NCBI RefSeq assembly: GCF_003018115.1
Contig: NZ_CP027457.1
Length of the DNA: 64,000 bases
Strand: one strand, 5' to 3'
DNA from: Escherichia coli
Lineage (GTDB): Bacteria > Pseudomonadota > Gammaproteobacteria > Enterobacterales > Enterobacteriaceae
Each line of letters starts with the position of its first letter. The stretch's first letter is position 1. Position numbers: made by a program. Positions 12,901 through 15,900 of the stretch are shown here, piece after piece.

Positions 12901-15900
12901 ATCAAATAAAATAACGATAGGTCACAACAAAGAGGTTTTTATGAAAAAACTTATCGTTTCAAGTGTATTGGCATTCATAACATTTTCTGCGCAGGCCGCA
13001 GCATTTCAGGTCACTAGTAATGAAATAAAAACAGGAGAGCAACTTACAACGTCTCATGTATTTTCTGGATTTGGGTGTGAGGGGGGTAATACATCGCCCT
13101 CATTAACCTGGTCTGGTGCTCCAGAAGGCACCAAAAGCTTTGCCGTAACTGTGTATGATCCAGATGCGCCTACAGGCAGTGGATGGTGGCACTGGACTGT
13201 TGCTAATATTCCAGCAACGGTAACATATTTGCCCGCTGATGCAGGAAGACGTGATGGTACAAAACTTCCGACTGGTGCTGTCCAAGGCCGAAATGATTTT
13301 GGCTATGCGGGATTTGGTGGAGCATGTCCTCCCAAAGGAGATAAACCCCATCATTACCAGTTTAAAATATGGGCTCTAAAAACTGATAAGATTCCTGTGG
13401 ATTCTAATTCCAGCGGAGCGTTAGTTGGTTATATGCTTAATGCCAATAAAATTGCAACCGCTGAGATAACACCCGTTTATGAGGTAAAGTAGGATAAGAG
13501 TATGCTGGCAAAAGATAGGACTAACCTAAAGATTGAAGAAATACGGATGCATAAACATCATGAGATTCACAGGGTTAAGCCTCTTATGCCAGCTTTATGT
13601 CGTATCCGTCAGGGAAAAAAAGTTATCAATTGGGAGACGCATAGTCTAACTGTTGATAATAATCAGATAATATTATTTCCCTGTGGATATGAATTTTATA
13701 TTGCGAATTACCCAGAAGCAGGTCTTTATCTTGCAGAAATGCTTTATTATCCCATTGATCTAATTGAAAAGTTCCAAAATCTTTATGCGATAACCGATCA
13801 AATTCGTAACACGACAGGTTTCTGCTTACCTCAGAATCCCGAGTTAATATATTGTTGGGAGCAACTAAAAACATCTATTTCCCGAGGCTTCTCAACGCAA
13901 ATTCAGGAACACTTAGCAATGGGCGTTCTACTTTCATTAGGAGCACATCATGTTAATTGTTTACTTTTATCAGATAGTAAACAATCATTAATAAGTCGTT
14001 GTTATAACCTAATGCTATCCGAACCTGGAACAAAATGGACAGCAAACAAGGTAGCGAGATATCTCTACATTTCTGTTTCCACATTGCATCGCCGTCTGGC
14101 AAGCGAGGGAGTAAGTTTTCAAAGTATATTGGACGACGTGAGGTTAAATAATGCGTTGTCTGCTATACAAACGACAGTAAAACCCATCAGCGAGATTGCC
14201 AGAGAAAGTGGTTACAAGTGTCCTTCTCGTTTTACTGAAAGGTTCCATAATCGTTTTAAGATAACACCAAGAGAGCTAAGAAAAGCGTCCAGAGAGTAAA
14301 AGTATTTTATGAAGGAGCAACAGCATCGATTTTTATTTTGGAAAATAAATACGGCATACTCAACCTATTGGAGCCTGAACAATCCGGTGACTTCTGCGCT
14401 AATCGGGGACGTTTATAAGCACATATAATTGATACTATCTTCCTCCATCACAATTTCAGAAATGCACGTGTGATTTTTTTGCATCCGGCGTTTGGACTAT
14501 GTGGAGTTCAAGAGTGGGAAAGTTACAAGAGGTTGAGGGGATAATTAAAGGGATGCTTATGACATTAGATATCCGGTTAGGTACGGATATCGTTGTTATT
14601 AAATCTAATTGATACGTTAATTGTTCACTGAGTATTATTAAAAATGGGGCGTTGAAACGCCCCAGAAAATAAAGGGTAATATATAACAGAAGGTTTATAT
14701 AGTCAGAAGCAAGATAGTGCTTCTAAGGAAAGTGGTTTGAGGGCGCCACTTATATGTTGGGGAGGCAAAGCCTCCCACAACATATCTTTGAGTAATCAGA
14801 TTAGAACTGGTAAACCAATCCTACAGCAACGATATCATCGGTAGCAACGCCAGATGCTTTCGTGAAATCGCTCTTATCAATCAGGTTGATTTTGTAATCA
14901 ACAAAAGTGGACATATTTTTGTTGAAGTAATAGGTTGCACCTACATCAATATATTCAACCAGGTCCTGATCACCCCACGCACCCAAGTCTTTTCCTTTAG
15001 ATTGCAGGTAAGCAACGGACGGACGCAGACCGAAGTCGAACTGATATTGTGCAACTACTTCAAAGTTTTGTGCTTTGTTGGCAATATGGTTATTACCAAA
15101 AACAGTCATGTTCTGGGTTTCAGAATAGGTGGTAGCCAGATAGATGTTGTTCGCATCATATTTCAGACCAGCTGCCCATACTTCAGCATTTTGACCAGAT
15201 GCATTCAGGCTGTTGTTACCGTAGATAACCTGATCATTAGTGCGGTCAGATTTAGCATAGGTTGCACCTACACCGAATCCTTCATACTCATAAGTAGTGG
15301 AGAAACCGAAACCATCACCGTTAGCTTCAGTTACGTCAGTGCGGTCATTTTTACCCTGATACTGAGCAGCAAAGTTCAGACCATCAACCAGACCAAAGAA
15401 GTCGTTGTTACGATAAGTTGCAACACCTGTGGTGCGACCAGTCATGAACACATCTGTTTGGGTCCAGGTATCGCCACCGAATTCTGGCAGAACGTCGGTC
15501 CATGCACCGATATCGTATGCTACACCGTAGTTACGGCCATAATCGATGGAGCCGTAGTCACCGAATTTCAGGCCAGCGAAGGCAAGACGGGTTTTATCTT
15601 TGGAAGAACCTTGAGATTCAGCACGGTTGCCTTTGAATTCATATTCCCACTGACCGAAACCAGTCAGTTGATCGTTGATTTGAGTTTCGCCTTTGAAGCC
15701 CAGACGAACATAAGTTGTGTCGCCATCATCTGCATCGTTAGAAGAGAAGTAGTGCTTAGCATTAACTTTTCCGTACAGATCCAGCTTGTTACTGTCTTTA
15801 TTGTAAATCTCTGCTGCCTGAGCAGACATCGCCATCAGTACTGATGCAGCTACAGCAGAAATTGCCACTGTTAATTTTTTCATCGTGAGCCCTTTTATTT

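Follow-up and report, generated by a model that had tools for sequence, protein, structure and literature searches.

Stem-loops at the 3' end of an mRNA, such as REP elements and terminator-proximal stem-loops, act as stabilisers by stalling PNPase and RNase II. The same part of a transcript can also be a source of small RNAs: MicL, CpxQ and SroC are Hfq-dependent sRNAs that derive from 3' UTRs and use the terminator of the parent mRNA, and the usual 3' module of Hfq-dependent sRNAs consists of a conserved stretch, a U-rich sequence, a terminator hairpin and a U-tail. Porin genes are carried by phages as morons, autonomous transcription units that sit in prophages and bring a promoter and a terminator of their own, among them lc of PA-2 and nmpC of DLP12; the start of the nmpC promoter, PnmpC, has been mapped in K-12 by 5' RACE (PMC11677980). 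In textbook lambdoid phages pR', a pause element and tR' directly follow Q (bioRxiv 10.1101/651190; phage 21 annotation). The pR'-to-tR' transcripts include lambda 6S RNA and StxS, the latter showing that by-product transcripts of this type can be regulatory (PMC7547250).

Here we describe a related locus in a 64 000-nucleotide stretch of Escherichia coli DNA (contig NZ_CP027457.1 of assembly GCF_003018115.1), referred to as the window, in which all positions are counted. The feature at 14620-14810 is, taken as a whole, best explained as the 3' untranslated tail of a mobile nmpC/lc-type porin cassette, a reading in which we have fairly good confidence. The locus contains emrE, ybcL, ybcM, a Q stub and the porin, flanked by fliE and yedK. 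Positions 14516-16221 are a prophage remnant made up of the 3' end of quuD, a 188-nt spacer, the porin and the porin promoter region (Table 1), and the cassette in the window is a domesticated prophage remnant. In a blastn comparison with K-12 DLP12, positions 12786-14506 correspond to DLP12 2498-4218 and positions 14516-14842 to DLP12 6001-6330. Window segment 14516-14842 is homologous to the spacer between quuD and the porin in DLP12-type prophages and in 36 phages. The remnant of quuD shares 87% identity with the 3' ends of quuD in DLP12-type prophages, and its in-frame translation ends in GIIKGMLMTLDIRLGTDIVVIKSN before the stop codon, where QuuD ends in GIIEGMLMALDIRLEMDIVVNNSN; QuuD belongs to PF06530 and is distantly related to Q21.

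Table 1. Features of the porin cassette and its surroundings (positions in the window).
Feature	Position	Strand	Details
Deletion junction	14507..14515	.	ybcN-ninE-ybcO-rusA-ylcG and most of quuD lost
quuD remnant (Q21/933W family), last 32 codons	14516..14612	+	97 nt; stop TGA at 14610-14612
Promoter-like match, TTGATA-18-TATTAT	14609..14638	+	Consensus scan, 10/12; probably chance
U5 tract of porin terminator	14640..14644	-	AAAAA on plus strand
HP2, terminator stem-loop of porin transcript	14645..14664	-	8 bp; dG -14.1 kcal/mol
AU-rich linker, mostly unpaired	14665..14702	-	CUGUUAUAUAUUACCCUUUAUUUU; unpaired in consensus structure
H3 hairpin	14703..14726	-	9 bp; dG -10.3 kcal/mol; z -4.4
H4 hairpin	14730..14751	-	6-8 bp; abuts HP1; predicted in window and in consensus structure
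HP1 hairpin	14752..14785	-	15 bp, one bulged U; dG -22.9 kcal/mol; starts 16 nt past porin stop
Porin, nmpC/lc-type, intact	14801..15883	-	360 aa; Pfam Porin_1, E = 1.3e-153; stop TAA at 14803-14801
Porin upstream regulatory region, prophage-derived	15884..16221	-	DLP12 homology

The porin is an nmpC/lc-type lysogenic-conversion porin of lambdoid phages: its DNA is 86-97% identical to that of the porins of 36 lambdoid phages, PA-2 lc among them. As in the morons lc and nmpC, of which it is a direct homologue, the gene comes with a promoter region and a terminator of its own, and this unit is found on different backbones, namely lambdoid phages, P1-like phages and plasmids, and the E. albertii chromosome. 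The window unit differs from these morons in having lost the surrounding phage, with only cargo genes left. It also differs in position: the porin unit stands after Q and ahead of the late promoter cassette instead of beyond tR'. DLP12 homology upstream of the porin reaches 16221 and ends short of the conserved late-promoter cassette.

The first-pass annotation had reported two strong hairpins stacked downstream of the porin gene, one with a 15-bp stem starting 16 nt past the stop codon and the other followed by a T-run. Both are present where it placed them (HP1 and HP2 respectively), but two further hairpins between them, H4 and H3, had been missed. On the porin-sense strand HP1 reads AUAUGUUG-U-GGGAGGC, loop UUU, GCCUCCCCAACAUAU; its fold was matched by none of 200 shuffles, and no U-tract follows on this strand, the stem being succeeded by AAGUGG. 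HP2 reads UGGGGCGU, loop UUCA, ACGCCCCA, then UUUUUAAUAA, and has the layout of a terminator, with GC at six of eight pairs, a 4-nt loop and a U-tract directly after the stem. Its first base lies 121 nt beyond the first base of HP1.

The expectation in the first-pass annotation that minus-strand folding would beat shuffled controls was borne out, the 191 nt of 14620-14810 folding in porin sense at -62.0 kcal/mol where dinucleotide shuffles gave -31.3 +/- 3.7 kcal/mol (z = -8.28, 0/200). The plus strand of the tail region folds nearly as strongly (z = -6.06), because DNA palindromes fold on both strands. A simple terminator scan flagged HP2, but the two sites that it found in 3.1 kb are not above chance (2.4 expected). 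What speaks against chance is accordingly the fold z-scores, the conservation and covariation of the tail, and the RNA 3' ends mapped in the K-12 orthologue.

Tandem 3' structures had been proposed to be usual for highly expressed porin mRNAs, with ompC, ompF and nmpC suggested for comparison. The generalization does not hold for ompC and ompF, whose tails fold with z of only -1.9 and -1.6 and contain one terminator each, 18-25 nt past the stop. The comparison with nmpC did hold, since its 3' region is the direct homologue and has the same tail. The window porin shares its last codons with ompC and ompF (QF before the stop, CCAGUUCUAA), and HP2 resembles their terminators in being a GC-rich stem with a U-tract on the porin strand; in contrast to them, it stands 137 nt past the stop, behind three more conserved hairpins (z -8.3).

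The tail recurs with the porin in different genomic settings. HP1 and HP2 are both present in 85 of 90 loci, and the order HP1, two middle hairpins, AU-rich linker, HP2 is common to lambdoid phages, P7 and E. albertii. In P7, a P1-like phage without Q, the porin adjoins ssb and is 77% identical, and its tail has the four hairpins, which differ in sequence and still pair. In the E. albertii chromosome the porin adjoins ycgN, homology starts exactly at the HP2 U-tract, and HP1 carries a swap of C-G to U-A. Because the tail is found with the porin in both of these settings, it belongs to the porin cassette and not to Q.

In an alignment of 16 sequences, 9 of 39 pairs had changed on both sides, compared with 2.7 +/- 1.4 in shuffles (0/500), the changes coming from a few lineages (P7-type, E. 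albertii and PhiR63_2-type), and therefore from few independent events, and the apex of HP1 and HP2 being misaligned for P7. Controls in which the structure was slid along the alignment gave 0-2 double-changed pairs, and 96.3% of cells were paired in the real structure. Among the lambdoid variants alone, changes fall mostly in loops, bulge and linkers. HP1 varies in its loop and bulge base and retains its stem, which shows compensatory substitutions in E. albertii and P7, while the stem core of HP2 is almost invariant around a loop that is UUCA, CUCA, UGCA or UUCC, the P7 stem differing in sequence and still pairing. Of the 31 lambdoid variants, one departs from the U5 tract, and does so at the stem-adjacent base. 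Double changes affect three pairs of H3, whose G.U variants pair only in porin-sense RNA, and two pairs of H4. A strand test by G.U asymmetry gave approximately six G.U-only events in porin sense and three in the other, a weak preference for the porin strand.

In primary sequence the linker is the best conserved part of the tail, being nearly invariant across the lambdoid, E. albertii and P7 versions. A scan of genome contigs with the linker motif gave 87 matches; among the 80 loci listed, E. albertii was the sole relevant one, and the others listed are chance matches in AT-rich genomes. The linker may serve as an RNase E entry site and/or as an Hfq site or sRNA seed.

Published Term-seq data for MG1655 place RNA 3' ends at both outer hairpins; they come from K-12, in which IS5 interrupts nmpC and the spacer shares approximately 89% identity with that of the window. 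Minus-strand 3' ends at 574367 (LB, OD 0.4) and 574366 (M63) (PMC7815308, supplementary file 1) coincide with, or directly adjoin, the final U of the U5 tract in the HP2 orthologue. We accordingly take HP2 to be the intrinsic terminator of the porin mRNA, which is what its canonical appearance had suggested in the first-pass annotation. A further minus-strand 3' end, 574476, was recorded in one of three conditions (LB, OD 0.4; PMC7815308) and maps 3 nt past the HP1 stem in the K-12 orthologue. Since no U-tract follows HP1, an end at this position points to processing or trimming, in keeping with the protective role also suggested for this hairpin. HP1 is most likely a block to 3' exonucleases, although the HP1-proximal end could be produced by something other than exonuclease stalling. 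Like 3' stem-loop stabilisers, HP1 is very stable and lies just past the stop codon with an RNA 3' end immediately beyond it; unlike REP, it is specific to the porin cassette rather than a member of a dispersed family, and its stabilising role is putative.

The tail is thus an ordinary device that ends and most likely stabilises a transcript. Transcription from the porin promoter passes the stop codon, continues through approximately 135 nt of structured RNA (HP1, H4, H3 and the AU-rich linker) and ends at the 8-bp GC stem and U5 tract of HP2, where the 3' ends of the K-12 orthologue map. Read-through is caught by a Rho-dependent region just beyond HP2, recorded in MG1655 at 574331(-) (PMC7815308). 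In the likeliest mechanism for HP1, the linker would then be cleaved, probably by RNase E, and 3'-to-5' exonucleases would trim back until they halt at HP1, leaving a protected, translatable porin mRNA.

In lambdoid phages HP1 may have another task on the opposite strand, a use that sets it apart from known stabilisers. The plus-strand sequence after HP1 is CTTTGAG (T3) in the window, CTTTTAG or CTTTTTC in phages and UUCUU in P7; the T-run is T4 or T5 wherever Q lies upstream, and T3 in the window, where Q has been deleted. Judged from this sequence pattern, the phage palindrome with its T4-5 run probably also terminates the Q operon, and would stop its transcription before antisense entry into the porin. 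A terminator added in the quuD-porin spacer caused no change in K-12 (PMC11677980). The 'ORF1' of PA-2, a plus-strand reading frame with its ATG inside HP1, was rejected as a gene: it is open only in T5 variants and has 13 codons in the window.

Termination on the plus strand is also what one would expect if the spacer were a Q-dependent late cassette, with pR' immediately past the stop codon of Q, a short leader RNA that has HP2 at its 5' terminus, and HP1 as tR', giving a short transcript like lambda 6S or StxS that is fully antisense to the porin tail. This was our initial hypothesis once the quuD homology had been recognized, and it fits the layout of textbook phages: the tail adjoins a Q gene, a promoter-like match occurs at 14609-14638, and in most phages HP1 is followed by T5 on the Q strand. 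The promoter-like match is probably a chance one, its phage counterparts being weaker (TTAATA with AATTAT or AGTTAT) and unflagged by the scan, and no -10-like pause element was found near the putative start, whereas in phage 21 such an element comes within a few nt of the promoter and a terminator comes next. The Term-seq list for K-12, in which the Q operon is probably silent, contains no plus-strand 3' end at HP1, and SMRT-Cappable-seq has no entry for a plus-strand start near HP2. The spacer accompanies the porin where Q is absent (P7, E. albertii) and is missing behind Q homologues of 79-88% identity, while QuuD-family Q genes are accompanied by another conserved cassette of approximately 85 nt that fits pR'/tR'. 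That cassette comprises an inverted repeat TTTACGnnCGTAAA, TATnnT, TAAGAG (cf. TAAGCTG, which is the pause element of phage 21) and, as its terminator, the canonical AACCCGCCG..CGGGTTTTT. It follows Q at a distance of 145 nt, 797 nt or 1642 nt and always precedes the late genes; in porin phages it is found between the promoter of the porin and the holin gene. On the strength of this cassette and of the Q-less tails the late-cassette reading was dropped, and we now consider it very improbable. Cargo genes are seen to be inserted between Q and the candidate QuuD late cassette. Less probable again, to the point of being hardly credible, is that the hairpins are remnants of a DNA rearrangement or signals for one, whether IS200/IS605-type ends, a REP-like palindrome or a recombination site at the island junction, the last of which the first-pass annotation had entertained. 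Similarity to approximately 2,200 other E. coli genomes does end at 14620 or 14607-10, no more than 25-40 nt from HP2, with an IS200/IS605 transposase annotated beside the break. The break at 14620, however, is one end of a simple deletion of 1,222 bp (14621-15842) in which the hairpins and codons 15-360 of the porin were lost, and the IS lies in the leftover stub in a subset of those genomes; a link between this IS and the hairpins was accordingly rejected. The deletion junction of the island in the window is approximately 130 nt from HP2, so the hairpins do not mark it. Nor do they sit directly at the boundary between the porin and ybcM, as had been stated, since approximately 207 nt of DLP12-like sequence, the junction and the 97-nt Q remnant intervene. 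The spacer occupies a median of one place per genome and at most four, always between quuD and the porin; being present once per prophage, it is not a dispersed element of the REP/BIME kind. The edge of the E. albertii cassette at the HP2 U-tract could look like a recombination boundary, but a cassette ending at its own terminator is what one sees in a self-contained transcription unit.

A reading closer to the one we prefer is that the segment of approximately 110 nt lying between HP1 and the end of the HP2 U-tail is released as a stable sRNA, or a landing pad for Hfq or ProQ, with the linker as seed. As in sRNAs of the MicL, CpxQ and SroC type, a U-tail terminator shared with the mRNA is preceded by a conserved unpaired stretch, and in K-12 the segment has a distinct minus-strand 3' end on either side. 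Primary-sequence conservation is strongest in the unpaired linker CUGUUAUAUAUUACC, which is followed by a U-rich stretch, the terminator hairpin and the U-tail, and the cassette has kept its tail in three unrelated genomic settings. The porin tail differs from those sRNAs in being known from its conserved stretch, terminator module and 3' ends. Against this reading, the U-tail has only five U, and conservation of the linker could be explained equally well by an RNase E site or by short divergence times. Rfam 15 covariance models gave no match at E <= 1 on either strand of window positions 13000-17000, the tail included, and literature searches with quuD/ybcQ and nmpC, with nmpC and Hfq, UTR or sRNA, and with the hairpin sequences found nothing on the region and no mention of such an RNA. 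We regard it as unlikely, though less so than the two preceding alternatives, that cleavage in the linker lets a fragment of approximately 110 nt accumulate as a chaperone-bound regulatory RNA or sponge.

The preferred reading, a terminating and probably stabilising 3' end that belongs to the porin, bears mainly on annotation: the appropriate label is 3' UTR plus terminator of a porin cassette of phage origin, beside a Q-gene stub, in place of junction signal or late-promoter leader. The comparison also provides the uncharacterized QuuD branch of the Q21 family with a candidate late promoter/terminator cassette. If the tail did yield an sRNA, the mobile porin cassette would spread a regulatory RNA to lambdoid phages, P1-like plasmid prophages and chromosomes, coupling expression of a foreign porin to the regulation of envelope or porin genes in the host and adding a putative mobile regulator to the porin network. 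On the reading that we favour, a cargo gene has kept a long, structured and covarying 3' tail across lambdoid phages, P1-like phages and chromosomes, which points to selection for a stable mRNA or for insulation against convergent transcription from the phage.

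The locus (14300-14810) is 99% identical to that of E. coli strain S88, and its genes run fliE, emrE, ybcL, ybcM, porin (minus strand), yedK, yedF, yedE. The first-pass annotation had described two strong hairpins 3' of the porin gene. The fold of the 191 nt at 14810-14620 has an energy of -62 kcal/mol, compared with -31.3 +/- 3.7 kcal/mol in dinucleotide shuffles (z = -8.3); the hairpins are therefore present as described and are no chance feature. A consensus terminator scan by itself gave hits not above background. Two further hairpins lie between them, and from the porin stop onwards we call the four HP1, H4, H3 and HP2.

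Features of the porin 3' region in the window, and of the candidate late cassette in three compared loci
Feature	Position	Strand	Description
quuD remnant	14516-14612		in frame, last 32 codons
HP2	14664-14645	-	8 bp, loop 4 nt, -14.1 kcal/mol; then UUUUUAAUAA
AU-rich stretch	14702-14665	-	mostly unpaired, directly before HP2
H3	14726-14703	-	between HP1 and HP2
H4	14751-14730	-	between HP1 and HP2
HP1	14785-14752	-	15 bp, one bulged U, loop 3 nt, -22.9 kcal/mol
porin stop codon	14803-14801	-	
porin gene	14801-15883	-	360 aa, Porin_1 E = 1.3e-153
candidate late cassette	L004:5741-5822; L099 ~4678-4760; L096 ~4017-4075		

It had been suggested that tandem 3' hairpins often protect highly expressed outer-membrane-protein mRNAs. 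Like the porin gene, K-12 ompC and ompF end in CCAGUUCUAA. Each has one terminator, 18-25 nt past the stop, with fold z-scores of -1.9 and -1.6. A long tail of several hairpins is therefore a trait of the phage-type porin and not of porins generally.

The stretch 14516-14810 shares 87-88% identity with the spacer region that separates the antiterminator gene quuD from the antisense porin gene in DLP12-type lambdoid prophages; this interval also occurs in 36 sequenced phages, including PA-2 (lc region) and a 434 recombinant with the K-12 qsr' segment. Phage P7, which is P1-like and lacks Q, carries a porin 77% identical to that of the window and convergent with ssb. The sequence 3' of this porin can be aligned with the window and folds into the same series (HP1, H4, H3, AU-rich linker, HP2 and U7), its stems differing in sequence with complementarity kept; this version is found in 116 P1-like plasmids. 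In Escherichia albertii NBRC 107761 (L111:6956-8257), the porin cassette lies beside the core genes ycgL, ycgM and ycgN, and homology to the window begins exactly at the HP2 U-tract, the 3' boundary of the cassette; the HP1 apex is GGAGGU/ACCUCC in place of GGAGGC/GCCUCC. In the lambdoid spacers (31 distinct variants), most substitutions affect loops, linkers and the HP1 bulge base (A, G or absent). The consensus fold of a 16-sequence alignment recovers all four hairpins with 96.3% of cells paired, the P7 HP1 apex and HP2 being misaligned there, though both fold on their own. Both sides have changed in 9 of 39 pairs, stemming from few lineages, where shuffles give 2.7 +/- 1.4 (none of the 500 reaches 9) and slid-partner controls 0-2. 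G.U pairs valid only in porin-sense RNA outnumber those valid only in the antisense (15 versus 5 cells, ~6 versus 3 events), which points weakly to the porin-sense RNA. Judged from these alignments, the tail is part of the porin cassette.

Transcript ends are indeed found at these hairpins in K-12: published Term-seq data (Adams et al., 2021; PMC7815308, supplementary files 1 and 2) cover the orthologous locus, where coordinates map exactly (quuD 573956-574339; HP2 574372-574390; HP1 574479-574512; nmpC stop 574529). Minus-strand 3' ends at 574367 (LB, OD 0.4) and 574366 (M63) fall where the HP2 U5 tract ends. A caveat is that K-12 nmpC is split by IS5, so that the transcripts concerned start at the nmpC promoter and read through IS5, as demonstrated by 5' RACE (PMC11677980). 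We conclude that, in the K-12 orthologue, the porin mRNA ends by intrinsic termination at HP2. Just past HP2, and antisense to quuD, the published data (PMC7815308) list a strong region of Rho-dependent termination at 574331(-), with a Rho score of 9.7, equivalent to window ~14600 and leftwards; HP2 therefore leaks, with Rho as backup. HP1 has no U-tract on the porin strand, yet a further minus-strand end, 574476 (LB, OD 0.4; PMC7815308), lies 3 nt beyond its base, as would be expected of a stalled 3'-to-5' exonuclease. The conserved AU-rich linker is a plausible RNase E entry point, and HP1, H4 and H3 would then shield the coding part of the mRNA.

Because textbook lambdoid phages place their late promoter (pR'), pause element and terminator (tR') directly after Q (bioRxiv 10.1101/651190; phage 21 annotation), we considered whether the hairpins are instead a plus-strand late leader with HP1 as tR'. 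A promoter-like match lies at 14609-14638 (+), and CTTTTTC directly follows HP1 on the plus strand in most phages. Against this, the spacer has left no trace beside porin-less Q homologues 79-88% identical to QuuD, three of which share a different ~85-nt element downstream, and it accompanies the porin where Q is absent (P7, E. albertii), so that this reading is largely refuted. The K-12 Term-seq list holds no plus-strand 3' end at HP1, but this absence carries no information, phage early genes probably being silent there; in line with such silence, an rrnB terminator placed in the spacer left expression from the quuD side unchanged in K-12 (PMC11677980). The tail might also yield a 3'-UTR-derived small RNA, a reading that we consider improbable. 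Both the mapped pair of 3' ends and the conserved unpaired stretch, adjoining as it does a terminator module, would fit it; Rfam 15 gave no match with E <= 1 on either strand of 13000-17000, and literature searches found nothing on such an RNA.

Alongside its part in the porin 3' end, HP1 may, with less confidence, also end transcription converging from the Q operon in lambdoid phages. In variants with Q upstream, the plus-strand run after it is T5 (18 variants) or T4 (11); the window and S88, where Q has been deleted, have T3, and P7 has UUCUU. As terminators, HP1 and HP2 are nested, not back to back, so convergent transcripts would overlap by ~140 nt. 'ORF1' of the 1986 PA-2 annotation (14755-14796 (+); L006:180-389 in the compared locus) is unlikely to be a gene: its ATG lies within HP1, antisense to the porin, the frame stays open only where HP1 is followed by five T, and in the window it spans 13 codons.

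The ~85-nt element, absent from the window, comprises an inverted repeat TTTACGnnCGTAAA, TATnnT, TAAGAG (cf. TAAGCTG, annotated as the pause element of phage 21) and a canonical terminator AACCCGCCG..CGGGTTTTT. The repeat is perfect, TTTACG(TA/AT)CGTAAA, with a compensatory centre. The element follows the Q stop at a distance of 145, 797 or 1642 nt and, in porin phages, has the porin promoter on one side and the holin gene on the other. QuuD (PF06530) is distantly related to phage 21 Q, and the element is a candidate late promoter/terminator cassette of the QuuD branch, an uncharacterised part of the Q21 family. Whereas in the textbook layout pR' abuts Q, cargo (the porin or a DnaD_N protein) here separates Q from this candidate cassette. 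At L096-L098:4629-5360, three compared loci, a pertussis-toxin-S1-like (Pertussis_S1/Scabin-like) gene follows a Q homologue with 88% identity to QuuD and lies upstream of the holin gene, a toxin cargo placed where Stx phages carry their Shiga toxin genes.

The fliE-yedK island (12371-16221) is a stripped DLP12-like prophage left with cargo only (emrE, ybcL, ybcM, porin), all its phage functions (ybcK, ybcN, ninE, ybcO, rusA, ylcG, most of quuD, lysis genes) lost through at least three deletions. Relative to K-12 DLP12 it retains emrE; ybcL, ybcM and ~207 nt; the quuD remnant and 188-nt spacer; and the porin plus ~340 nt upstream of it. One deletion junction lies past 16221 and another at 14507-15, the latter ~130 nt from HP2 and away from the hairpins, and the proposal that these mark a recombination junction is not borne out. 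Nor are they rearrangement signals: the spacer is single-copy per prophage, and the 14620 break in ~2,200 genomes is one end of a porin deletion. That deletion (1,222 bp, 14621-15842) is identical in ~2,200 complete E. coli genomes (compare loci L003 and L002), takes out both hairpins together with porin codons 15-360, and joins ACGTTAA to GATGCAGCTAC; the porin is kept at this site in only 453 genomes. An IS200/IS605 element is sometimes inserted in the remaining stub, and the RefSeq 'tnpA' CDS in L002 extends into island sequence. Compared with its phage counterparts, the plus-strand promoter-like match (TTGATA-18-TATTAT, 10/12) has been improved by substitutions in the island lineage; were it active, antisense transcripts would cross the tail and enter the porin. 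The flagged region is an mRNA 3' end of an ordinary kind, real, conserved and well-behaved, and the small new descriptive point is a covarying four-hairpin tail on a mobile porin cassette.
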